NCBI RefSeq assembly: GCF_988242995.1
Contig: NZ_OZ547043.1
Direction: 5' to 3' (one strand)
DNA: 64,000 nt
The position numbers were made by a program, and so were the translations under genes. Each line of letters begins with the position of its first letter. Position 1 is the first letter of the stretch. Below, piece by piece: positions 10,038 through 62,124 of this stretch. The notes beneath the pieces are model-generated. The model ran no database searches, was not told the DNA's origin, and worked only from the letters and a program-made list of their open reading frames with translations.

Positions 10038-10086
10038 TGCCGGATGTTTTGTCAGATGCGGCAAGAACGCCTTATCCGACCTACGT
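10038..10086. repeat. REP-like palindromic element
   Basis: tgccggatg ... gatgcggcaagaacgccttatccgacctacg. Confidence 0.6.
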
Positions 10087-30379: not shown

Positions 30380-30472
30380 TGCCGGATGCGACGCTTGCCG
30401 CGTCTTATCCGGCCTACGAATACTATGGATTAACTTCGCGTAGTTCGGATAAGGCGTTCGCGCCGCATCCGA
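30380..30472. repeat. REP/BIME extragenic palindromic repeats
   Basis: gccggatgcgacgcttgccgcgtcttatccggcctac and cggataaggcgttcgcgccgcatccg. Confidence 0.8.
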
Positions 30473-30487
30473 CAATAAACACCTTAT

Positions 30488-43278: not shown

Positions 43279-43325
43279 TCGATGTTAGTAACTTCAAGCC
43301 TATGATTCTTGAAGATAATAAATAT

Positions 43326-43349
43326 CCTCCGGCATAGCCGGAGGTTTTT
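43326..43349 (+). terminator. Hairpin + T-run; yfgI terminator, or possibly an IS200 right-end structure
   Basis: cctccggc-atag-gccggagg followed by ttttt. Confidence 0.6.
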
Positions 43350-43425
43350 CAAATGCGCCTGTAAGGCTCTGTTACCAGCCGCGCCCTAACAGGCGCATAC
43401 GATCTGACATTTGCATTCAACTTCG

Positions 43426-43884
43426 TTACTTACGGCCCGTAAACGGGCTGCCCGGATATGGAATCGATAACTGCTCCCCCATTTTATCCTCTTCAAGCTG
43501 GTGCTTTATGTAGTCACGTATCTTCGCCGTGTTCTTACCCACCGTATCGACATAGTACCCTCGGCACCAGAACTCCCTGTTTCTGTATTTGAATTTCAAA
43601 TCCCCAAACTGCTCGTAAAGCATCAGACTGCTTTTCCCTTTCAGATATCCCATAAAGCCGGATACGCTCATTTTGGGTGGGATTTCCACAAGCATATGGA
43701 TATGATCTGCGCAGCACTCTGCTTCCAGAATCCGTACGCTTTTCCACTCACACAGCTTTCTCAAAATACTGCCTATCGCCCTACGCTTCTCTCCGTAAAA
43801 CGCCAGTCTTCGGTATTTCGGCGCAAAAACTATGTGATATTTACAGTTCCAGCGGGTGTGCGCTAAGCTCTTTTCGTCCCCCAT
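43426..43884 (-). CDS. tnpA: IS200-type Y1 transposase TnpA
   Basis: ORF 43426..43935; start at MGDEKSLAHTRWNCKYHIVFAPKYRR (152 aa); HIHMLVEIPP HUH motif and catalytic Tyr region RGYYVDTVG. Confidence 0.9.
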   Translation of the reverse strand: MGDEKSLAHTRWNCKYHIVFAPKYRRLAFYGEKRRAIGSILRKLCEWKSVRILEAECCADHIHMLVEIPPKMSVSGFMGYLKGKSSLMLYEQFGDLKFKYRNREFWCRGYYVDTVGKNTAKIRDYIKHQLEEDKMGEQLSIPYPGSPFTGRK

Positions 43885-44023
43885 TGGGACCCCCTTTTGA
43901 TTTCTTGTTTGACACTTGCAGTTGCCAGACCGCAAGGTGTTTTAACAAATCAAAAGGGGTTTTAATAACTGGCTCAAAGCTGAAAGCTTTCCGGAACCCC
44001 CAGCCTAGCTGGGGGTTTTCTGT

Positions 44024-44060
44024 GCACAAAAAACCCTCTGTAGTAACAGAGGGTTTTGTT
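44024..44060 (-). terminator. Rho-independent terminator of guaBA
   Basis: Minus-strand hairpin aaccctctgttactacagagggtt followed by TTTTTT, ~25 nt after guaA stop. Confidence 0.75.
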
Positions 44061-47325: not shown

Positions 47326-48732
<1,407 letters not shown>

Positions 48733-48791
48733 GATGCGCCAGCATCGCATCCGGCACTGGCTCCCAGGCCACGCCAGATGCGCCATGCTGG

Positions 48792-51700
48792 TTACTGGAA
48801 GCAGGTCACCAGACCCGGTTTATTCATTAGCGTGATACTACAATCCTGTGCTCCAGTGCCTTCGTCCATTCCACACTGTTGAGAGGACAAATAAGGAAAA
48901 CTTGGTGAAGACGGCCATCCCAGTGAATTAAAAACAGTGTGCAACAACTCTAATTCATTGTATGTCGGTGCATTTTCTATGCTGCCACACTGCCTTGCAA
49001 TATCCCATTTACTGGCATCAATGATATGTGCAGAAGCCCAGTTTTCGTAGTTAATAATCGGTGAGGATACGGGATTAGCCCCGGACGGCAATTCTGTCGT
49101 TAACAACGGTCGATGTAGCGATTTACCATTCACCACTACAGTGTCTGCCATATGTCCCCAAAAGTGCGCCGAGGAAACATTCGGGCTGGTTGGTACCGTA
49201 AAAATAGCGTCCAGCGTGTCTGTCGCGGAAGCGTAATTAGCCAGAGTAACCGTCAGTGGCGTTTTATAACCAGGGGTATTATCCTGGCGGAGCGTAAAAC
49301 TTGCCGTCCCATCCGCGCCTGTCATGCCACTAATGGTATTACCGCTTTCACTCAGCGTAACAGCCGAACCAGATAACGGCTGAACGATGAGATCGTCCAT
49401 CGCCACCACATCACCATACAACGTCGCCCCAGCGTTACGCGGCGATGCATCGCCACGTTTCAAAGTAAATTCCACATTCGGTACCGTATTCCCGGCGCTG
49501 TCTTTCACCGTCACGGTAACGGGCATGGCTTCGCCTTTTTTCACTTTCGCCGCCTGAATAGCTGCGTCAAACGCTGTTGAGGTCAGTGTGACGCTGGAAA
49601 CCGTTGCGCGCGCAGACACCAGACACGCCTGATAAGCGGCATTACCATTCAATGTCGTTGTGCCATCTTTCATATTGAGCGACTGATTTTTACCATCTGT
49701 AGTCTTATCCTGCGCCCACCAGTAATAATAAACTGACCAGCCAGTTTCCGTCGTAAGGGTGTTATTGGGATAACGTTGATACAGTGACTTCATATCGCTG
49801 AGCAACGGTTGCCGGGCTTCCTCACAAGGGCTGAGGCTGGCATTTGCTTTAGTGGTTGACGAAAAATAGGGCCAGTCCTCATTATTGTTATTGGTTTTAT
49901 TTACCCCGGAGGTCGATGGCAGCTCCTTCCACAATTTCGGTCGTTCAAAGACGGTTCCATTTGCCGCTGTCACCGTTTCTGGCATATGACCCCAGTAGTC
50001 GGCATCCTGGGCGTCAGGGCTGGTGACCACGGTAAATATCAGGTCCAGGTTTGACGTGATCTGCGGATCTTGTGCAAGCGAGACCGTAAACGGCGTTGCC
50101 AGGCCGGTGGTGGCGTTTTGCGTAACATTGAACGTCACTGTGCCATCACTGCCGGTAAAACCAAGCCATTTTGCCGTATCCTGAGCAAAGGAAATACGGG
50201 TTGCTGTCGGTGTGACGACATCTACAATAAGATCATCTGCCGACGATGAGGGCCTAATTCCTGAACGACTTTTCGCCTGCGCCCGCTGAAGCGTCACGCT
50301 CTCGCCACTCAGCAGGTTGCCATTTTGGTCTTTTACTGTCACGACTAACGGGATTGTCTCGCCCTTTTTCGCCGATGCCGAAGGTGTACCGCCGTTACTG
50401 GCGGTTTTCGTCTCATCAAATGCTATTGAAGTCAGGGTAACGCTTGACGGCTTAGAGTGAGGCTGTGCCAGGCAGAGCATTAGAGCAACCGGAGAGAGTG
50501 CGGATGATACTCGTCCCGTACTTAGGTTAAAGACCTGATAATACCAGGAGCTACCATTGGAGTTAAGCAATTCATAAATCCACCAGTTTCCTGACGCTAT
50601 CGGCAACCCCAGATCTTTCGTTAACGCCCCGTTTGGGTGATCGTCATATAACCCCTGCAATTCGCTGAGGCGCGGTTGATATTCCAGCGAACAATCTGCC
50701 GTCGCTTTTTGAGTACTATATATATATGACCATGTCTCATTATTACCGTTTACCGAGCTCCCCGTAGTCGCTTCCGCTGCCAGTAATGGGCGCTTGAAGG
50801 TCACGCCTGCCGAACTGGTAAACGTTTCCGGCATATGGCCCCAGTATTTCGCTTTTGGCGAATCCGGGCTGGTTATCACCGTGAAAATGACATCCAGCGT
50901 GACGCTTTTCGAGGTATCGCGCATGAGTTCTGCGCTGAGCGGCGTTGACAGCCCATAACTGCTATTCTGGCTGACCTCAAACGTAGCTTTACCATCGCTC
51001 CCTGTCTTCAGGAGAGCCTGCGTCCCATCCCCATACAAGATTGACGTTACCCCAGTAGGTTCCACAGGTATGATGGTAAGATCATCTGCAGAAGCATCGT
51101 ACGCAGCTTTAGCGCGGTTCAGCGCAGTCCCTCGTTTAAGGTTAAAGCTGGCACCTGGCAGTGGATTGCCTGCGCTATCTCGCACCGTAACCGTCATCGG
51201 GATAACCTCTCCCTTCTTCGCTGTTGCGCTGGGCCTGCCATCATTGCTGGCCGTTTTCGTTGCATCCTCCGCCGTTGAGGTCATTTCAATAGAAGCCGCC
51301 TCTGGATGAGGGTTTACCAGGCACAGCATTAATGCCGAGGTGCTTGAAGACGCTCTTCCACTTGATCCATTTAACAGATAAATATATTGATCGTACCAGT
51401 TACCCGCATATGCCACCATGTCGTAAGCCCACCAGTAGCTATTTACCGGAATACCCAGATCGGTCTTTATCGCACGACTTGGGTGTTCGTCGTACAATGC
51501 CTGTAGTTCGCTTAACAGTGGTTGATAATGTACATCGCACCCGCTTTTATCGATATCCCCCTTTGTTGCCGATCTCAACACGGCCCACTCTTCATTGTCT
51601 TCTATAAACGACTGGCCCGACGATCTTTCAGCAGAGAGTAAGGGGCGTTTGAAGGCAGTACCAGAACGCGTAGTGAACGTTTCCGCCATATGCCCCCAGT

Positions 51701-54700
51701 AACTTGCCAGGGGGGTATCCGGGCTGGTTATCACGGTAAACATCACGGGTAATTTGTTGGATTCCAGGCTCGACTGATAGGCCTGAGCGTACACATTGGT
51801 TACCAGGCCTATAGAATCATCCTGCTTTACCGTAAACGTGGCTGTCCCGTCTGCACCTGTCACCGCATAAAGGGAGATTGATGGAGTATCCACTCTTGCC
51901 GACGTTCCCGCTGCGTTGATTACAGTGATAGTTCTGTTCGACAACTGTACATTCTGGCGATTTGTCGATCCTTCACGTTTGAGAATAAACGGAACATTTG
52001 GTACGACATTTCCCTGCGCATCTTTTGTCACCACGCGAATCACCGCGTCGTCACCTTTTTTCCGTTTTAGTGCGCTGAGGGTTTCGTCAACTTTGACAAA
52101 TTGTGTCGCATCGTTCGCTTCAACAATAATGTGGCTGGTCACCGCCACTGGGGTAGCCCGACAACTTAGCAGTCCTAGACTGCTTGACATGACCTCCGTT
52201 CCATCACCCGTTTTTAACGAAACCGCTTTAAAATTAAATGTTTGAGTGTAATAGGCAACAACCGTACTGGAGATATAGGCGCGTGATACAGGCCATCCCG
52301 TAACGTCATGTATTGGCACGTAACCTTCATCGGCATACAGTGACTCCAGCTCACTTTCAATCGGGACATATCCTGCACCGCAACCATTTACAGATGTGTT
52401 GTTCGACTGGTCCGGCGAGAACAGTGACCAGCTCTCTCCATCTTCCTGAAAAGAGCTTCGACTGGTTGTAACGGAAAGCTCATCTTGCAATAACGGTCTT
52501 TTATAAATAAGCCCGCCTGCACCGGTCATCGTTTCGGCCATATGCCCCCAGAATTTTGCTTTAGGGGTATCGGGGCTGGTTATCACCGTAAAGACCACCG
52601 GAAGCATTGATTTTACGTTATTATCTGTATCCAGCATGGCGGTCAGTTCGGTTTTTAAACCCGTGGTATTGTCCTGTTTCAGTGCAAGTGTTGTCGTACC
52701 ATCTGCGCCGGTAACGCCATAAATCAGTGCTGTTGTTGAGGAAAAATTACTCTGCGTGTTACCCCAGGCATCCGTCACGATGAGCGCGCCTGCTGTCACC
52801 GTTGTAGACGCATTTGCCCGATTGACGCTAAGGTTACGTTTAAGCGTAAACGCGGTATTTCCCACCGGGTTACCCTGCGAATCTTTAGTGGTCACGCGAA
52901 CCACGACTTCTTCCCCTTTTTTCGCTTTGACAACATTATTCGTACTGTCAAATTTCGCGGGGTCCGCAGCCTCAAGAACGATTTGGCTTGCCTTGACGAT
53001 CGGCGTCGTCTGGCAGGTAAGCAGTTCTTTTGTGGCCGATGGAATTATCGAACTGGTGCCTGAACTGAGATTGACGGCCTTGAAGTCACGCTGTTCCAGA
53101 CTACTGCTGCCTGTCGTGCTGGAAAGGTAACTTGAGGCGACGGGCCAGCCCTGAACCGTTTTCATCGCATTGCCGCGGTTGGCTTCATACAATGACTCCA
53201 GCCCGGCCTGGGAGGGAACATATTCACTACCACAACCATTAGAGGATGTGCTTGTCGCCTGAGTTTGGGTAAATTGCGCCCAGTCCTCATTATCTTCTGC
53301 AATCGCTGTTCGACCCGACGTACTGGATAACTCTTTCAACAATAATGGGCGTTTAAAGACCGTTCCATCCACAGCCGTCACCGTTTCAGGCATATGCCCC
53401 CACATTTTCGCCTTATCGCTGTCCGGGCTGGTGACAACGGTAAAAATGGTATCGAGGGTCGCTTTTTTCGTTGTGTCTGAATAGAGCGCGGCGGTCAGCG
53501 ACGTTTTTGTGCCATGGGTATCCGGGCGGGTAATAGTGAGAATTTTAGTGCCATCGCTGCCGGTCATCGCGCTGTATGCTGCGGCGGTATCATTGAGCGA
53601 AGTTTCATCCGCCAGGCCACTATTGATCACAACCGGCGCAACCAGCGCATCACCGCTACCGGCAATGTGTTTTTCGTTTGATCGGGTATAACCATCGCCA
53701 CGCTTCAGCGTAAAAGGCATATCACCCAATGGATTGCCCTGAGCATCTTTTACCGTCACCTTCACCTGTAGCGTTTCGCCTTTTTTCAGCTTCGCCGCAT
53801 TTGCTGCCGCGTTCCACTGCGCCGGGTCCACCACTTCCAGCGTAATGCTGCTGGCAGGATTGTTAGCCGTCGTCAGGCAACTGACATAAACCGCCGTGCT
53901 ACCGCCAATGGTCCGCGCGCCATCGTTGAGGGCTATGGTGTAGTAATGCGGCACCTGATCCGCGGGCGAACTGCTCCAGTAGGGCTGACGCTGCGTTGGC
54001 CAACCGTGTACCGTTTGAACGGCGTTACCGCTGTTAGCATCATAGAGCGCGTTAAGCTGGGAACGGCGTGGGAGCATATTGGCACCACAGCCACCTTTAC
54101 TGGTGCTGGAAGTGTTGGCCTGGCTAACGCGCGACCACACTTCGTTATTTTCCGTTAATGTGCCGTCCGGGCTGAACACTTCCGCAGCCAGCCGGGGTCG
54201 GGCAAAGGTTAATGCATCGACGGTAATCGTCTCATCCATATGACCCCACATCTGCGCGCCAACCGCATCCGGACTGGTGAGCGTAGTGAAAATCACATTG
54301 TAATTAACAGTATTGGGAATATAGGAGTTTACAGGCGCAATATTCAGCGGCGTCGCTAAGCCCACACCTTGCGGTTGCTTAATTTCCACAGTAGCAAAAC
54401 CCTGCGCATCCGTAGTACCTGCATAGACTAAAGACGGTTGCGATGTTCCGTAGAGCGTGCCATTCATCTCGATTGCGCCGCGGGTTGGATCATCGAAACC
54501 CGTGCTCTGCCCCTGACGATTTTTCCCCATATCTTTAGTGATGGTGAACGCGGTATACGGCACGGGCGCATTACTCAAGGCATTAAAGGTGCGTACCGTC
54601 ATGGTAATCGTTTCACCCACTTTAGCCTGCGCTCTGCTGCTTGTGGAAACATCATGATCGGTGGTCGCAGCAATCTGGGCGACCATCTCATTGCCCGAAC

Positions 54701-56834
54701 AAGAAAGGTAGTTTTGCTTAAAGCCGGAATAGGTGTCGATGTTGCCCGTGGCCAGGTTCACCGACGCGTGCGACGTCTCTTCCACCGCACTAAGATACGC
54801 TTTTTGCAACGTTGGCCAGCCATATTCGGTGCCGATGACATTGGCTGGATGTGCGGCAAACAAACTGTGCAATGAGCTTTGGCTCGGAATATGACCTAAA
54901 CCACACTCAGCCTGCATACTGCTATTCTGATCAAACAGCGCCCAGTCTTCGTTATTTTCCCGCACTGCTCCCAGTTCGTTGTCGGTTTCATCCGCCAGCC
55001 GTGGGCGTTTAAAGATATTATTCGCTTCAATAATGCCTAACATATGTCCCCACATCCGCGCTTTGTCGGAATCAGGGCTGGTGATCACCGTAAAAATAAC
55101 GTCTTTCTCATCCGAGGCGGTAAAATCACTGCGCATTTTCGCGGTGATGTGTGTTTTCACCCCCACGCCGCCTGGCTGGGTCAGCGTCAGAGAGGCCTCT
55201 CCGTTAGCATCAGTGATCCCTTCATAGGTATGGGCGTCAACTTTGCGAACGTTACTGCCACCATCAATTTGTACCGGGTGCGTCTCCCACGCAGCGTCAG
55301 TTTGATTCTTACGGTTAACACCGTCATCCAGATGCAGCGAAAAGTAGTAGTAAGCCAGCGGCTGATCGTTGTTCTTGCTATCGGTAATCGTCAGGCGTAA
55401 AGAAGCCTCTTCCCCCACCTTTACTTTCATCGCTTTTATCGTCGAATCATAACTGCCCGGCGTCAGTACCAGCTTCGGTTCAACATCGGGCGCTTCTTTA
55501 TCGACACAGCTCACAATAAACGTCGTATCGTCCGGTTTTTGCGCTTCGCTGCGGTTCGAAACATCCGCCGCATGGTGCTGGCCGCTCATCCCCGCCAGTG
55601 ATGACCAGTAGAAATTACCCTGCATCGGCCAACCAGCCACATCCTGCACTGACGTTGGCACCACCGTCGCCAGCGCACCGAAATGACGCATTCCGGGCAA
55701 AATGTCGCAATGTTTATCCGCGCCGCTCCAGGTAAAGGTGGACCAGGTTTCATTGTGATCGTTAACCGTACCGTCTTCATTATCGACTTCCGCCGCCAGT
55801 TTTGGTCGACTAAAAGTGTAATCACGGGCCTTCAGCGTATCGGGCATATGACCCCACATTGTAGCCTGCGGGACATCCGGGCTGGTGAGGACGGTAAAGA
55901 TCACTGCCGTTTCACTGGCCTGAGCAATACCCGCGAGGCTCGCGACCAACGGCGTTTTTACACCAGGGCCGTTGGCCTGGGTGACCGTAACCGTGGCAAC
56001 ACCATTCGCATCAGTAGTACCACGATATTCCGTCGCGGTGGTGGTTAATTCGGTCGTGCCCAGTTTTACCGGCGCAGTATTGTTCACCACACCCTGGCGG
56101 TTTTCAGCATCTTTGCGTTTGATAACAAAAGGAATATTCCCCACAACATTACCGACGCAATCTTTGGTGGTGACCGTTAACGTGATACTGCCGCCAACCG
56201 TCGTTTTCGCCGCACCGGAGGATTCGTCATAGCCCGCGGCGCTGACGGAAATAAGGTCACCCTGCGCGGGCGCAATCTTCAGCGTCACTTTCTGATCGGC
56301 GAGGGTCAGAACACTTTCATAGGGATAGCCCGTCGAGGTAAGTAGATATAACAGCGGCATGGTCTGCTGGGGGTCTGGCTGCGCCCAGGCGATCAGCGAA
56401 CGCCCGGCAAGGCCCTGTGCGCAAAATGAGCGATCTGCGACTGGCTGTGGGTCCAGTAAGGTGTCCGGCGTCGCGGCATCCGCCCAAACTAAAGATACTG
56501 TCGGTGGCGTTTGGTTTTCCCAACGTGGTGTGGCAATGATATCGCCTTCTCTGTCTTGCGGGTTGGTGACGAGCAATTTAGAGACGCTAACATCCGCGCT
56601 GAATTCACTCGGTTTAGCGGTAAACGCTACCTCATTCGTCTTTGCAGGATCCAGAAAGACACTGCCCTGGTAGACGGGTATGCTGGCACTGTCGGCGGTG
56701 GGCACGGTACCGTTAAATTCGCCGACCGTATCTGAAGAGTCTTGCCATGCAGATTCTGCCCATGACCACCCAGGCAGCATTGCGCTTATCAGCAATGCGC
56801 ATAACACAAGGATTTTATTCAGGGTCAGGGACAT
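48792..56834 (-). CDS. Giant (2680 aa) secreted Ig-like repeat protein, RatA/RatB-like; signal peptide followed by nine tandem ~280-aa modules
   Basis: Single uninterrupted ORF; N-terminal signal peptide [26 protein letters not shown]; nine copies of the motif FTV(I/V)TSPD...(M/F/Y)WGHM; GGAG RBS 9 nt upstream. Confidence 0.85.
49000..56100. repeat. Nine diverged tandem DNA repeats (period ~800-855 bp) inside the giant gene
   Basis: Plus-strand core catatg(n)cccca (= WGHM codons) recurs at ~49148, 49983, 50832, 51686, 52539, 53391, 54237, 55041, 55846. Confidence 0.8.
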
Positions 56835-56881
56835 GACAGAAACTCCACCGGTTGTTAAACGGACGCTTGTCGCATCAACAT

Positions 56882-56910
56882 ATTTTGCTTAATCCGGGAT
56901 TAAGCAAAAT
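56882..56910. promoter_or_regulatory. 29-bp perfect palindrome between sinI-like gene and giant gene (candidate operator or RNA structure)
   Basis: ATTTTGCTTAATCC-G-GGATTAAGCAAAAT: 14-bp arms with a 1-nt centre. Confidence 0.5.
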
Positions 56911-56919
56911 ATGCGGAAA

Positions 56920-56943
56920 CAGCATTCCCTTGCGGGAATGCTG
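56920..56943 (-). terminator. Stem-loop 12 nt after sinI-like stop (candidate attenuator / partial terminator)
   Basis: 10-bp stem cagcattccc/gggaatgctg, 4-nt loop, followed on the mRNA strand by UUU. Confidence 0.45.
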
Positions 56944-56954
56944 CTGAGTACGCG

Positions 56955-57932
56955 TTATTTGTGTTTGTAAATAATGTGAAGTTTGTAACCCTGTACCCCG
57001 TCGCCGTTTGTCGGAATGGTAAGAGCCTCTTTACCATCGCGCGCAGGACCGTTAAGGTTGGTTCTGGCCTCGTCGTTGGTCGCAGGGATGGCCAGATTGT
57101 TATTATCGAAGCTTGAGTTAACGATACCACCCGAAGTGCCGAGCTGCTGGCTGCTGCCAGAAAGTACCCAACGGAAGTCATAATTGGCGGTAACGTCAGC
57201 ATCGGTACCCGCATCAAACTTGCCGTTTTTGTTCTCATCCGAGTAAAGTTTGGCCACGTAGGTTTTGCCAAGTTCGATTGGCGTGCTGCCGTTGATAAGG
57301 TTGATACTGGTACCATCAACAAAGATGGCGACTTTCAGGTTCTGGTTAACCACCGGCCCTGGCGCAACGTTATCGCTGTCGCTTCCGCCGCCGTCGGCAG
57401 TAGAAACGTCATAAAGATGCAGCGCAGTCCCGACGTTTGGCGTACCGGTCTGCGTGGTTGGCGTAATTTCAATACCGATATAACGACCACGGTCGTCATC
57501 GGTAAGAGTGTAACTGGTCACCTTCGTTGCCAGCTCTTTTGGATCGTTACCCTGAGCGTCCTTGTAGCTCATCCAGCGGATAGTATCGATAGTCTTTGCG
57601 TTATCGCCCAATCCCCCAAGATCCACGTCGCCTTCGGTATCACCAATTTCCCAACTTACGGTTAATTTATCACCCGAGTAAAGACGCTTGTCCGTTTCAC
57701 TACCTGTCGGGCGAGCGCCTTTTAGATCAGAAGTCAACGTTACATGGTCGGCATCTGTCGTAGCGCTTCCCCCTTCCGAATAGAGCCACGGAATGGTTCC
57801 CTGGAAAATATTGGTTTCGCCGCTTTCGACCCAGGCGCTTTCTTCCGCCAGCGCCACAGGTGCCACACAATAACCTGCCAATGCCAGCGCCAATGCGATC
57901 CGGGTCAGACCGCGTCTTTTATCCTGCTTCAT
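56955..57932 (-). CDS. sinI: SinI-like secreted protein (CS54-island sivI homolog)
   Basis: 325-aa ORF with signal peptide MKQDKRRGLTRIALALALAGYCVAPVALA; AGGAGA RBS; C-terminal ~110 aa resemble the C-terminus of the adjacent SinH-like protein. Confidence 0.8.
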   Translation of the reverse strand: MKQDKRRGLTRIALALALAGYCVAPVALAEESAWVESGETNIFQGTIPWLYSEGGSATTDADHVTLTSDLKGARPTGSETDKRLYSGDKLTVSWEIGDTEGDVDLGGLGDNAKTIDTIRWMSYKDAQGNDPKELATKVTSYTLTDDDRGRYIGIEITPTTQTGTPNVGTALHLYDVSTADGGGSDSDNVAPGPVVNQNLKVAIFVDGTSINLINGSTPIELGKTYVAKLYSDENKNGKFDAGTDADVTANYDFRWVLSGSSQQLGTSGGIVNSSFDNNNLAIPATNDEARTNLNGPARDGKEALTIPTNGDGVQGYKLHIIYKHK

Positions 57933-57986
57933 TGATGCTCTCCTTAATGAACCTTCAGCGACTGGCCGACTGGCCTTACGCCAATC

Positions 57987-60164
57987 TTATTTTTTGGTAT
58001 ACAGCACGCGTAAACCGTATCCCTGCAAGCCATCTCCCGCTTGTGCGCCATAGGTTTGCGCTGCTTCGCGGTTAGTGGCCGGAATCACAATGTCCTCATT
58101 GGAAGTGTTCGCCTGTGCACCCACTTCACCATTGATGCTCTTGCCGGTAAATTCCCACTTGTAGTCGTACTGCGCCATCTCTTCGTCAGTCAGTTTTTCG
58201 ACCTGCTGGAAGACACCGTCTTTATTGCTGTCACGCCACAAAACAAATCGATAAGTGTTGTTGAGCGGCAGCGGTTCTTTATCTTTACCTATCAGGTTGC
58301 TGGGTTTAGCTGCCCCCACACGATAGATAAATGCATTTAGCCCACCAATTTCTGCCCCGAGGAAAGTGACATCCACATAGTTACTGTCGTCGTAGGGCGC
58401 AGCTTTTGCTTTCCAGCGATAGGTGCCGGGTAAGGTACTGGAGAGGGTGACAGTGCCCTTTTCTTTATCTTGTTTAGCGATAAAAACGCAGGGGTTGTCG
58501 GTCGAGCAAGGCTTGTTGGTTAACGTCACTCGTTTGTCCTGCGCGTCGTAAAGCTGCGGCGTGAGGTTATCTTCCGGCAGCGCATCGCCATTGCGGTCGG
58601 TGTTATCGCCAAAGCTGTCGGTTACATCGAGATCCATCACCACACCATCAACGCCATCTGCCTGAGCGCTGGCTTCGTGGCTGTGGTTGTTCTCTTCCGG
58701 CACGTTCGCGATGTTATTAACAATCAACTCTATTTTACGGTCCTGCTGAACGGTGATTTCCACCACGCCAGAGTTCTGTCGGTTGCCCTTTTCATCTTCC
58801 AGTGCCAGACGTACTCGCCAGGTATTGAGTTTTTCTTGTTCGGCTTTGTCAGAGCTGTACTGCCAGGCGGGCAGCACCAGGTTCCAGTGGTTATTGTTAC
58901 CCTCTGTCAGGGTATTCTCTTTGATAACCGGCATAACCAACGTGCGGGCAGCATTGTTTTTCGCCTGCCATGACGCAGCGACAATTTTGTAGTGGTGGTT
59001 GATAAGCGCGTTAATGGTCCATTTACATTTTTCCAGCCCGACGGCCGCTTCGGGAGTGTCCTTAATGACGCACTCAGGGTGCTCGTTGGTGGCATCCGCT
59101 TTTAACCACAGGGTGACATCAAGCGGATCTTTTTCTTTGTATTCCAGAACAATAAAGTTATTACGCTCAACAAAATCATGACGACTGCCCATCAACGAGT
59201 GAGCCGCTTTCACTTTATCGCTATCCAATTGATCTTTTAGCGGAACGCCGAACTGATAATTAAGAGTGGCATTAATGCTGACATCGCTGTTATCTCCGGT
59301 CCCCGCTTTATAGTCCGCCCCAACGGTTAGTAATGGCACCGGTTGATAATTCAGTCCAAGTGTTACCGCGTAGGGATCTTTCTCCAAATTATCCGTACCA
59401 AAAAGGGCGACTTCATCGCCGTAATATTGCTCGAAGACAACTTTGCCCCCCAGTTGCGGATAAGAAGGTAACCAGGCTTCGGCACGAATATCCCAGCCGC
59501 GCGCAGGGCGTTCTTCATAAAAGTCGAAATCTTCAGAGTCTTTCCAGTCAGAAAGCGGATGATAATAGTTGCCAGAGAATTTTAAATAATCAGTCCACGC
59601 TTCGCCGCCTAAACCTAAACGGCGATGTCCTCGGGTAAAATCATAATCATAAAATATATTTCCGCCCAATAACCATTCATCAAAATTATGTCTTACCCCA
59701 AGACCAATATTCCCGATTGTACGATCTTCTTTTCGTTGCGCAGAAAATTGACTGAAATAAACAGTGGTTTGATTATCGTACCAGGGAACAAAATAATCGA
59801 TGGAACTACCATCCAGATCGCCGTCCTGGCCAATGGAGAGGTTCGAACGGACCTTACCGTAGGGAGAGAGTGTGTCTTCAATATAAGATTGTGCGGTTGA
59901 GGTGATTTGACTTTGCAGATAGCTTCTGGCCTGAGATTCCAGCGCCTCAGGGGTCAAGTTTTCAAACCCTTGCGTGGCGGAGTTGATGACGTAATCGGCT
60001 CCGCGCTCTTTCAGCGATTTACCCTTGTTGGTTTGTTCATCCTGCTGTGCTGCCTGGCTACCTAAATCAGGTAACGATTCGTTTTGCTTAACATTTATCT
60101 CTGGTGCCGCGAAAGCAGCACCAGAGATAAATGTTAGCATAATACAGCGTTTCCATCGCAGCAT
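57987..60164 (-). CDS. sinH: Intimin/invasin-family inverse autotransporter (type Ve), SinH-like
   Basis: ORF 57987..60194; start chosen at ATG 60164 giving signal peptide MLRWKRCIMLTFISGAAFA; beta-barrel translocator signature (GGNIFYDYDF...LGLGGEAWTDYLKFSGNYYH) followed by passenger domains. Confidence 0.85.
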   Translation of the reverse strand: MLRWKRCIMLTFISGAAFAAPEINVKQNESLPDLGSQAAQQDEQTNKGKSLKERGADYVINSATQGFENLTPEALESQARSYLQSQITSTAQSYIEDTLSPYGKVRSNLSIGQDGDLDGSSIDYFVPWYDNQTTVYFSQFSAQRKEDRTIGNIGLGVRHNFDEWLLGGNIFYDYDFTRGHRRLGLGGEAWTDYLKFSGNYYHPLSDWKDSEDFDFYEERPARGWDIRAEAWLPSYPQLGGKVVFEQYYGDEVALFGTDNLEKDPYAVTLGLNYQPVPLLTVGADYKAGTGDNSDVSINATLNYQFGVPLKDQLDSDKVKAAHSLMGSRHDFVERNNFIVLEYKEKDPLDVTLWLKADATNEHPECVIKDTPEAAVGLEKCKWTINALINHHYKIVAASWQAKNNAARTLVMPVIKENTLTEGNNNHWNLVLPAWQYSSDKAEQEKLNTWRVRLALEDEKGNRQNSGVVEITVQQDRKIELIVNNIANVPEENNHSHEASAQADGVDGVVMDLDVTDSFGDNTDRNGDALPEDNLTPQLYDAQDKRVTLTNKPCSTDNPCVFIAKQDKEKGTVTLSSTLPGTYRWKAKAAPYDDSNYVDVTFLGAEIGGLNAFIYRVGAAKPSNLIGKDKEPLPLNNTYRFVLWRDSNKDGVFQQVEKLTDEEMAQYDYKWEFTGKSINGEVGAQANTSNEDIVIPATNREAAQTYGAQAGDGLQGYGLRVLYTKK
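60089..60136. repeat. Perfect 19-bp inverted repeat (10-nt spacer) inside the sinH signal-peptide coding region
   Basis: taacatttatctctggtgc (60089-60107) ... gcaccagagataaatgtta (60118-60136); also creates a mirror-image ORF on the plus strand. Confidence 0.9.
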
Positions 60165-60194
60165 GCACTTTCCCTGTGACAATGATACAGTCAA

Positions 60195-60373
60195 AAATAA
60201 GCTTTAATATTGTATCCCTGATTATTCAGAAAGGCATGTCATAAAGAATAAATATATTCTTAATTATTTAAATTAGTGATTTCACTCAATTACATTAGTT
60301 ATTCCACTAATAACAGATTGTTTTACCATTCACATATTAAATATAAATGATAAAACAATATATTCACATGATA
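60195..60373 (-). promoter_or_regulatory. AT-rich promoter/leader region of the sinH-sinI-giant operon
   Basis: ~180 bp of strongly AT-rich non-coding DNA immediately upstream of sinH. Confidence 0.5.
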
Positions 60374-60589
60374 TTAAGCAATAACAAATTCAACGCGTTT
60401 TTTAGATATTAAATCGTGCCCATGTTGGCAGAAATAATCCACAGCACCACAAGCTTTTAACACTTGTAACGGCTGATGACACTCAGGGCAAAGTGCCTGG
60501 ACGGTAAAGTCTTTGTCGCAAGTTGCACAGTGGGCAGTCTCGCCATTGCGTTCGAGAGGGGTTTTGCAGGTTGGACAGTTGAGTGCCAT
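60374..60589 (-). CDS. yfgJ: Zinc-ribbon protein YfgJ (DUF1407)
   Basis: 71-aa ORF with two CPxC...C/H zinc-ribbon pairs (CPTCKT..CATCDK; CPECHQ..CQHGH). Confidence 0.88.
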   Translation of the reverse strand: MALNCPTCKTPLERNGETAHCATCDKDFTVQALCPECHQPLQVLKACGAVDYFCQHGHDLISKKRVEFVIA

Positions 60590-60651
60590 AAATACTCCTC
60601 GCGCGTTATTCGGTTTCCCTTTCCGTGTGGAAAGGGAAACCAGATAAGTGA

Positions 60652-62124
60652 TTACTTACTTTTCTTGATATGCTTCATCAGGCGCTTACGCTTGCGCATC
60701 TGGGTTGGCGTCAGGGTATTACGCTTGTTCGCATACGGGTTTTCCCCTTCTTTGAACTGAATACGAATCGGCGATCCCATTACGTCCAGCGATTTGCGGA
60801 AGTAGTTCATCAGGTAACGCTTGTAGGAATCAGGCAGGTCTTTCACCTGGTTACCATGAATCACCACAATCGGCGGGTTATAACCACCGGCGTGGGCATA
60901 TTTCAGCTTCACACGACGACCGCGTACCAGCGGCGGTTGGTGATCTTCAACAGCCATCGTCATGATGCGCGTCAGCATAGAGGTCCCCACACGACGGGTG
61001 GAGCTGTCATACGCTTCACGCACTGATTCAAACAAGTTACCAACACCACTGCCGTGCAAGGCAGAGATAAAGTGCACACGAGCAAAATCGATAAAGCCCA
61101 GACGGAAGTCCAGCGTTTCTTTCACCTGCTCTTTCACTTCCTGGCTCAGGCCATCCCACTTATTCACCACAATGACAAGTGAGCGCCCACTATTGAGAAT
61201 AAAGCCCAGCAGCGAGAGATCCTGATCGGAAATACCTTCGCGGGCGTCAATCACCAACATCACCACGTTGGCATCTTCAATGGCCTGCAACGTTTTGATT
61301 ACCGAGAATTTCTCTACAGCATCGGTGATTTTGCCGCGTTTACGTACGCCAGCGGTGTCAATGAGTACATACTCACGTCCATCGCGCTCCATTGGAATGT
61401 AGATGCTGTCACGCGTCGTGCCAGGCATGTCGTAAACAACAACGCGCTCTTCACCAAGAATACGGTTAGTGAGTGTAGACTTACCTACGTTCGGACGACC
61501 CACAATCGCCAGTTTGATCGGCAGACTTTGCGGGTCGAAGTCATCTTCCTCTTCTTCTTCGCCGTTTTCTTCTGCTTCAAATTGCGCCCAGTATTCAGCG
61601 TCTTCGTCGACTTCTTCTTGCGGTGCGAGATCTTCCATCCACGGCAGCAGCACGTGCTCAAGCAGACTTAATACGCCACGACCGTGAGACGCGGCGATCG
61701 GGTAGATTTCCCCTAAACCAAGCGAGTAGAAATCAACCACTGCCTGATCGGGATCCAGACCGTCAGTTTTGTTTGCCACCAGGAAGGTCGGTTTTTCACG
61801 GGAGCGCAGATGTTTAGCAATCGCTTCATCCGCCGGCATCAGGCCCGCGCGCGCATCCACCATAAACAGTACGACGTCCGCTTCTTCAATCGCCAGCAGC
61901 GACTGTTCCGCCATGCGGGTTTCTACACCGTCTTCTGTGCCATCAATCCCGCCGGTATCAATGCAGATAAACTCACGGCCTTCAATTTCTGCACGACCGT
62001 ACTTACGGTCACGAGTCAGACCCGGGAAATCCGCAACCAGCGCATCTCGGGTGCGAGTTAGACGGTTAAATAACGTGGATTTTCCTACGTTAGGGCGCCC
62101 GACAAGCGCGACCACAGGTACCAT
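60652..62124 (-). CDS. der: Ribosome-associated GTPase Der (EngA), tandem GTPase domains
   Basis: ORF 60652..62163; start at [16 protein letters not shown] (490 aa); two G1 motifs GRPNVGKS. Confidence 0.95.

Follow-up and report, generated by a model that had tools for sequence, protein, structure and literature searches.

Flexible-gene hotspots of Enterobacteriaceae exchange their contents by homologous recombination in the flanking core genes. A cluster of adhesin genes beside xseA has been described in both Escherichia coli and Salmonella. According to the passages on this locus in PMC12928451 and PMC3591323, the cluster in ExPEC strains of E. coli goes by the names ila and GR17; sinH, sinI and ratA lie beside xseA in it, and its limits are xseA and yfgJ. 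In the same passages, the CS54 island of Salmonella (shdA, ratB, ratA, sinI and sinH) is listed directly after xseA. The sinH, sinI and ratA genes of Salmonella enterica CS54 thus occupy the same place beside xseA, whereas shdA and ratB are additionally present between xseA and ratA. Therefore, the xseA-side junction of CS54 differs from the junction described here. In the passages of the two papers that deal with xseA, sinH, ratA and CS54, neither a REP pair nor a diverged xseA tail is described.

The REP units of E. coli (y, z1 and z2) and the BIMEs built from them are defined in PMC8266576. A unit is an imperfect palindrome of about 29–37 nt that contains a conserved AA/GC mismatch bulge, and a conserved GTAG stands directly 5' of it. 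The GTAG motif is reported to be essential for the E. coli TnpA-REP (PMC8266576). REPs act as partial Rho-dependent terminators, as RNA stabilisers and as blocks to 3' exonucleases, and most of them are without a poly-U stretch (bioRxiv 10.64898/2026.03.23.713779). A REP is contained in 207 of the 704 convergent gene pairs of E. coli (about 30%), and 78 REPs fall within the 306 predicted bidirectional terminators (bioRxiv 10.64898/2026.03.23.713779). According to the part of PMC12306157 that cites Liang et al. (2015), translation is lowered by REPs when the stop codon is less than 16 nt away.

Here we describe a REP pair between xseA and the ratA-like gene in a stretch of 64,000 nt (the window), together with the alleles of this junction in other genomes, the border of the island and the possible roles of the pair.

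Gene organization of the locus

The window is part of an E. coli chromosome. The xseA gene (exodeoxyribonuclease VII large subunit, 458 aa) occupies 47356–48732 on the plus strand and ends with the stop codon TAA at 48730–48732. The assignment is based on the ORF, the Pfam Exonuc_VII_L and OB-fold domains and the RefSeq annotation of L001, a genome that is 99.8% identical. On the minus strand, a giant ORF of 2680 aa (48792–56834) ends with the stop codon at 48794–48792. Nine InvE_AD and nine BIg21 domains are detected by Pfam in its product, which is a RatA-like giant adhesin annotated as 'adhesion domain-containing protein'. The two genes are convergent, and the gap between the two stop codons is exactly 48733–48791 (59 bp), with the string gatgcgccagcatcgcatccggc located at 48733–48755. 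A convergent junction with a 59-bp spacer had been noted in the preliminary description, and the ORFs, the Pfam matches and the annotation of the junction genes in L001 all agree with it.

The giant ORF is followed in order by a SinI-family gene, sinH, yfgJ, der and bamB. The SinI-family gene (56955–57932, minus strand) is assigned from the ORF and from the annotation of L001, and its product has no Pfam match. The sinH gene (57987–60194, minus strand) encodes an intimin-like inverse autotransporter according to the annotation and the Pfam IAT_beta match (E = 2.9e-109). The yfgJ gene (60374–60589, minus strand) encodes a zinc-ribbon protein and is an island-linked allele, with 47 of 71 residues identical to K-12 YfgJ. 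The region upstream of sinH (60195–60373) is very AT-rich and is near-identical in UTI89, and the GC content is about 0.43–0.46 across 59000–61000. This region is probably the promoter or regulatory region of the adhesin operon.

On the other side of xseA, guaA and guaB are located on the minus strand. An insertion of about 705 bp (43323–44027) is present between yfgI and guaA, and is absent from L001, which is otherwise 99% identical. It encodes an IS200-like Y1 transposase (ORF 43426–43935, minus strand; Pfam Y1_Tnp, E = 1e-36).

Identification of the REP pair and its alleles

The spacer is a BIME-like head-to-head REP pair in which both units are truncated. The REP head decamer GCCGGATGCG is found on the minus strand at 48746–48755, and GCCAGATGCG is found on the plus strand at 48773–48782. 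The heads point towards each other with 17 nt between them, as in a BIME, which consists of two inverse REPs and a variable linker. The 64-kb window contains three exact copies of GCCGGATGCG, and the other two copies are located in canonical REPs. The decamer pattern with one mismatch allowed is not enriched over the window (17 matches versus 12.9 expected; not significant). In place of this enrichment test, a REP HMM was built from four other REPs in the window. The HMM recovers a fifth REP at 10050–10084, and the next match is 48729–48756.

This match corresponds to the left unit, REP1 (48729–48756), which reads GTAG-first on the plus strand and is without its first 9 nt (GTAGGCCGG). In the window, the match covers the model positions 10–35 with an E value of 0.039, which is marginal on its own. 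At the same site in the sister alleles of E69 (L037), L009, UTI89 and CFT073, the HMM match is full-length and starts from the G of GTAG, with E values of 2.5e-7 for E69, 4.9e-7 for a Pseudocitrobacter MAG and 3.9e-6 for both UTI89 and CFT073. Read GTAG-first, the left unit of the window is ATAAGATGCGCCAGCATCGCATCCGGCA, and 26 of 30 nt are identical to the canonical REP at 30381–30417; the identity of REP1 in the sister alleles to the same REP is 34–36 of 39–40 nt. The E69 allele folds into a complete REP hairpin with the AA/GC bulge, matching the definition in PMC8266576. In REP1 of the window, the 5' arm (GCCGG) is lost; the upper stem (GATGC/GCATC), the bases of the bulge (AA and GC) and the 3' arm (ATCCGGC) are still present.

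The right unit, REP2 (48773–48798, minus strand), is an inverted REP. It gives no match to the REP HMM in the window, and its tail is degenerate and runs into the end of the giant gene. REP2 is more canonical in E69 (L037; HMM E = 0.014) and in L009 (GCCGGATGCGCTGCGCTTATCC). We assign REP2 from the head decamer and the sister alleles. The linker between the two units (48757–48772) forms the small apical stem of the hairpin described below.

The pair is mostly extragenic. The tail of REP2 overlaps the stop codon and the last codons of the giant gene, and REP1 overlaps the stop codon and the last codon of xseA. As REP1 begins 4 nt inside xseA, the xseA stop codon itself is REP sequence.

In common with the E. 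coli REPs and BIMEs (y, z1 and z2; PMC8266576), the locus has the GCCGGATGCG head, the ATAAG...GCATCCGGC arms with the bases of the AA/GC bulge, GTAG in the sister alleles, and two inverted units with a short linker in the 3' region between convergent genes. Unlike them, REP1 of the window has neither GTAG nor the outer 5' arm and overlaps the xseA stop codon, little of REP2 is left beyond the head, and the remnants pair with each other and not each alone. The description of the palindromes as REP-like is borne out by the head decamers, the REP HMM and the full-length sister alleles. An intact REP pair (BIME; 30381–30473) is present elsewhere in the window, between arsC and hda, and a frameshifted IS1397-family element is located there in L001 (L001 1405–2880).

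In the lineage of the window, REP1 lost its 9-nt GTAG-bearing tail, and the stop codon of xseA moved from TAG to TAA with the length of the protein unchanged. UTI89, CFT073, O145, E69 and L009 read AATCC-GTAGGCCGG-ATAAG, with GTAG present, and the xseA stop codon in them is the TAG of the REP GTAG. The window is without exactly those 9 nt, so that no GTAG stands directly 5' of the palindrome and AATCC is followed by ATAAGATGCG (deletion site: window 48727–48737; L006 14428–14445; L037 11372–11390). Here the stop codon is the TAA of the REP ATAAG, and the protein still has 458 aa and ends with NP. Because GTAG is absent, the copy in the window is probably inert for mobilisation by TnpA-REP. Among the 976 complete genomes with the junction type of the window, the form of the window (111 nt) is carried by about 393–395, and the 120-nt form by about 580.

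Other alleles deviate further. In the island-positive E. coli MS1266 (L089, 1485–1540), REP1 is wholly absent (AATTCGTAG is directly followed by CTCCCAGGCC), and REP2 and the end of ratA are kept. MS1266 represents a presence/absence polymorphism of the REP at the same junction; its xseA tail is only 76% identical to that of the window. The SE15-type island allele, found in 742 genomes, has an unrelated spacer at the junction. No match to the REP HMM was obtained at the junctions of the SE15 type, E. albertii, Citrobacter and Superficieibacter, and their spacers are unrelated to that of the window.

In L009 and L010 (Pseudocitrobacter) and in L037 (labelled E. coli E69), the flanks are only 84–90% identical to the window, yet the same REP pair and the same XseA tail are present; the tail ends with KKAANP in L009 and L037. 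The same junction in such distant genomes indicates that the junction is old, or that it moved between genera with the island.

Hairpin structure and possible roles

The spacer folds as one long imperfect hairpin (48738–48792), in which REP1 is paired with REP2. The folding energy is -33.5 kcal/mol (z = -4.2), and none of 200 shuffled sequences was as good. With the flanks included, the energy is -38.5 kcal/mol on the plus strand and -41.6 kcal/mol on the minus strand. The hairpin starts 5 nt past the xseA stop codon and abuts the stop codon of the giant gene (0 nt), and it can form in either transcript. The core pairing of 48746–48755 with 48773–48782 is kept in all eight REP-type alleles, including those of the genomes whose flanks are only 84–90% identical. 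The junctions of MS1266, SE15 and E. albertii were also folded, and no significant structure was found (z about 0). According to this result, the hairpin may be inconsequential. In an Rfam scan of 48300–49200 with E values up to 1, no RNA family was found.

Covariation was considered as evidence of selection on the hairpin and was set aside. The covariation term over the eight alleles is only -0.14 kcal/mol and is not usable; the single clear compensatory change (CG to UA) occurs in two closely related alleles and represents one event. Separately, the 3' part of REP2, ATGCTGG (48785–48791), has become complementary to the REP1 loop CCAGCAT (48739–48745) in the group formed by the window, UTI89 and MS1266. 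The hairpin between the two REPs gains 7 bp from this pairing, which is not found in the O145, E69 and Pseudocitrobacter alleles. The extension might have arisen from quasi-palindrome correction by template switching.

It is quite likely that the spacer is a decayed BIME-like E. coli REP pair located where the 3' untranslated zones of xseA and of the sinH-sinI-ratA operon coincide, inside an exchanged island block, and that it is at most a modulator of 3' ends. REP1 has lost its 9-nt tail, REP2 is cut short by the end of ratA, and the remnants pair as a hairpin of about 55 nt in either transcript. As suggested by published REP biology, the hairpin would at most stabilise RNA 3' ends and partly block convergent read-through in a Rho-dependent way. 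Translation termination may also be dampened, because the hairpin starts 5 nt past the xseA stop codon and abuts that of the giant gene (0 nt). Both distances are inside the limit of 16 nt given for stop-proximal REPs in the cited part of PMC12306157. As in the REP-type 3'UTR regulators (bioRxiv 10.64898/2026.03.23.713779), a hairpin without a U-tract lies between convergent genes; unlike in them, the hairpin is formed between two REPs and is not a canonical single REP. Its absence from other alleles of the island indicates that the REP pair is dispensable.

In a second explanation, the REP pair would be a fossil left behind by selfish REP DNA; it would have no function, be kept by linkage only and be without effect on either gene. 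We regard this explanation as possible, although clearly less probable. GTAG, which is needed for the action of TnpA-REP, is lost here, REP2 is truncated, REP1 is absent in MS1266, and other island alleles have neither a REP nor a structure. A mere fossil, however, does not readily account for the head-to-head pairing in eight of eight REP-type alleles, some of them with flanks only 84–90% identical, nor for the extension of the pairing by 7 further bp in the group of the window, UTI89 and MS1266. Moreover, a hairpin of -33 kcal/mol within 5 nt of two stop codons is a configuration reported to affect translation and RNA decay.

The junction alleles could also be natural expression dials that set different levels of the ExoVII large subunit and the RatA adhesin. 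The series would comprise the full REP pair, the 9-nt-truncated REP1 of the window, the allele without REP1 (MS1266) and the allele without any REP (SE15 type). The hairpin is no more than 5 nt away from either stop codon, and that of xseA belongs to the REP; a different level could therefore result from each variant, by way of ribosomes that stall at the stop codon and of a protected RNA 3' end. We consider this unlikely. If it were true, the dial variants would be linked to the swapped C-terminal domain of XseA that travels with the island.

The preliminary description took the spacer for a probable bidirectional terminator. If both convergent transcripts ended at an intrinsic (Rho-independent) terminator that works in either direction, this would be consistent with the strong GC-rich hairpin on both strands (-33.5 kcal/mol, z = -4.2) and with the 78 REPs reported within the 306 predicted bidirectional terminators of E. 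coli (bioRxiv 10.64898/2026.03.23.713779). However, no U-tract follows the hairpin on either strand (three U in 8 nt on the plus strand, and three or four on the minus strand), and the hairpin is therefore not a canonical intrinsic terminator. No site was called at the spacer by the promoter/terminator scan, REPs are mostly without poly-U and are only partial Rho-dependent terminators, and other island alleles have no structure here. An intrinsic terminator is thus rather improbable. From what is published on REPs, any such role of the hairpin would plausibly be of the kind known for them, whether partial, Rho-dependent or RNA-stabilising.

One other candidate was found on the minus strand inside xseA, where a 5-bp stem with a T-run is located at 48711–48697 (ACGCGGTTTACGCGT TTTTG). 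It was rejected as a chance occurrence (one found versus 1.9 expected). In the direction of the ratA transcript, this small hairpin follows the REP hairpin at a distance of about 25 nt, and it is the only terminator-like site that the scan found.

Border and proposed exchange of the island

The island-linked block is 48570–60653 (12.1 kb) and includes a diverged xseA tail and yfgJ. In island-free genomes (K-12 DH5alpha, O157 and AHB5), the ends of xseA and yfgJ share 4 nt; a spacer is absent, and no REP HMM match was obtained at xseA/yfgJ. According to BLAST counts, the complete empty junction is present in 3668 of 5426 complete genomes. Together with the 976 genomes with the junction type of the window and the 742 of the SE15 type, 5386 of the 5426 genomes are accounted for. 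In the same counts over 5426 genomes, the K-12-type xseA tail is never combined with the island and always adjoins yfgJ.

On the left side, the homology shared with the island-free genomes stops at 48569/48570, which leaves 163 nt of xseA beyond the break. The island-free AHB5 is 99.4% identical to the window over 48401–48569 and 55.5% identical over 48570–48732, and over the latter segment it is 100% identical to K-12. The island-positive UTI89 has a K-12-like upstream segment (94.1%) and an island-like tail (85.9% identical to the window). All four combinations of upstream allele and tail allele are seen among the aligned genomes, and only the xseA tail tracks the island. This tail (48570–48732) is an island-linked allele of about codons 405–458. 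The XseA protein is 99% identical to that of K-12 up to ARGY and 55% identical after it. E. coli has two deeply diverged C-terminal tails of XseA, one of which is strictly linked to the island; the tails of several other genera resemble the K-12 tail (67–71%) more than the island-linked tail does.

On the right side, 60360–60653 is 44–76% identical to K-12, and the identity is 88–100% from 60654 on. The diverged spacer between yfgJ and der is 60590–60653, and the right edge of the block is the stop codon of der (60652–60654).

The REP pair is located on the island side of the 48569/48570 break. It is part of the island-linked DNA and not a pre-existing landmark of the backbone. The preliminary description placed the end of the island precisely at the REP and regarded the REP as an integration landmark, and it proposed a comparison with the xseA 3' regions of island-free genomes to locate the junction and any direct repeats. 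The comparison places the boundary elsewhere, 163 nt to the left inside xseA. No repeat of 11 nt or more is shared by the left and right junction zones, 9–10-mers are at the chance level, and the single inverted 10-mer between the two junctions is also at the chance level. The REP is missing from the empty sites and from other alleles of the same island, and neither the precise end nor the landmark is upheld.

REP/BIME sites are targets of some insertion sequences, and IS1397 has been reported to target BIMEs. From this background, the island might have integrated in or beside a REP of the backbone, so that the REP marks the exact border. In L001, an IS1397 does occupy a BIME whose counterpart in the window is intact, and no further non-coding element separates the REP pair from xseA. 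Nevertheless, such an integration is very improbable, for the empty sites of 3668 genomes have no REP or spacer, the island-linked divergence begins 163 nt further left inside xseA, and the same island is found at the same site with no REP in the 742 SE15-type genomes, E. albertii, Citrobacter and Superficieibacter. Direct repeats and an integrase are also absent. The remaining alternative, that the palindromes are a chance GC-rich inverted repeat with no relation to REPs, is extremely improbable: it would agree with the decamer pattern not being enriched in the window (17 versus 12.9 expected with one mismatch) and with the marginal HMM match, but the same position in sister alleles is a full-length REP with GTAG and the AA/GC bulge, REP1 is identical to a canonical REP at 26 of 30 nt, and all three exact GCCGGATGCG copies in the window lie in REPs.

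According to the annotation and Pfam, the island contains only sinH, sinI and ratA, and no integrase or transposase. There is no GC shift, as ratA and sinI have 0.49–0.54 versus 0.52–0.55 for guaBA and xseA, and the GC content goes down to 0.43–0.46 only at the 5' end of sinH and its upstream region. The same three genes are present between xseA and yfgJ in Pseudocitrobacter, E. albertii, Citrobacter and Superficieibacter, whose flanks are 84–91% identical to the window. No Salmonella locus was among the best 80 XseA matches in genome contigs.

From the allele patterns in a handful of aligned genomes and the BLAST counts, we infer that homologous recombination, and not site-specific integration, exchanges the block, with crossing over inside xseA and at der. 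These patterns suggest an old variable locus that is exchanged together with its flanks. The locus resembles the flexible-gene hotspots in that it has no integrase, att repeats or GC shift, its diverged flanks co-vary with the island, and it is variable across genera. It differs from them in that the left crossover zone is inside a coding region, so that the last 54 or so codons of xseA are swapped.

A different insert of about 1.4 kb is present between xseA and yfgJ in many genomes of Enterobacter, Lelliottia, Klebsiella, Kosakonia and related genera (L014, L016–L018, L021, L033–L036, L041, L044, L045, L050 and L060). As such inserts occur in many genera, the gap between xseA and yfgJ looks like a family-wide hotspot for variable genes.

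Implications

Both the element and the island are known, and the REP pair is an ordinary new case of little importance beyond correct annotation. For extraintestinal E. coli, the sinH-sinI-ratA island is an allelic block with its limits inside xseA and at der, and it is probably exchanged together with its flanks and not inserted at a REP. In comparative genomics, the limits of the island are to be redrawn, and island-positive strains have a different C-terminal tail of XseA. Effects on termination, RNA stability and translation have been proposed for REPs, and the REP variants at the junction could serve as a natural set for testing them.
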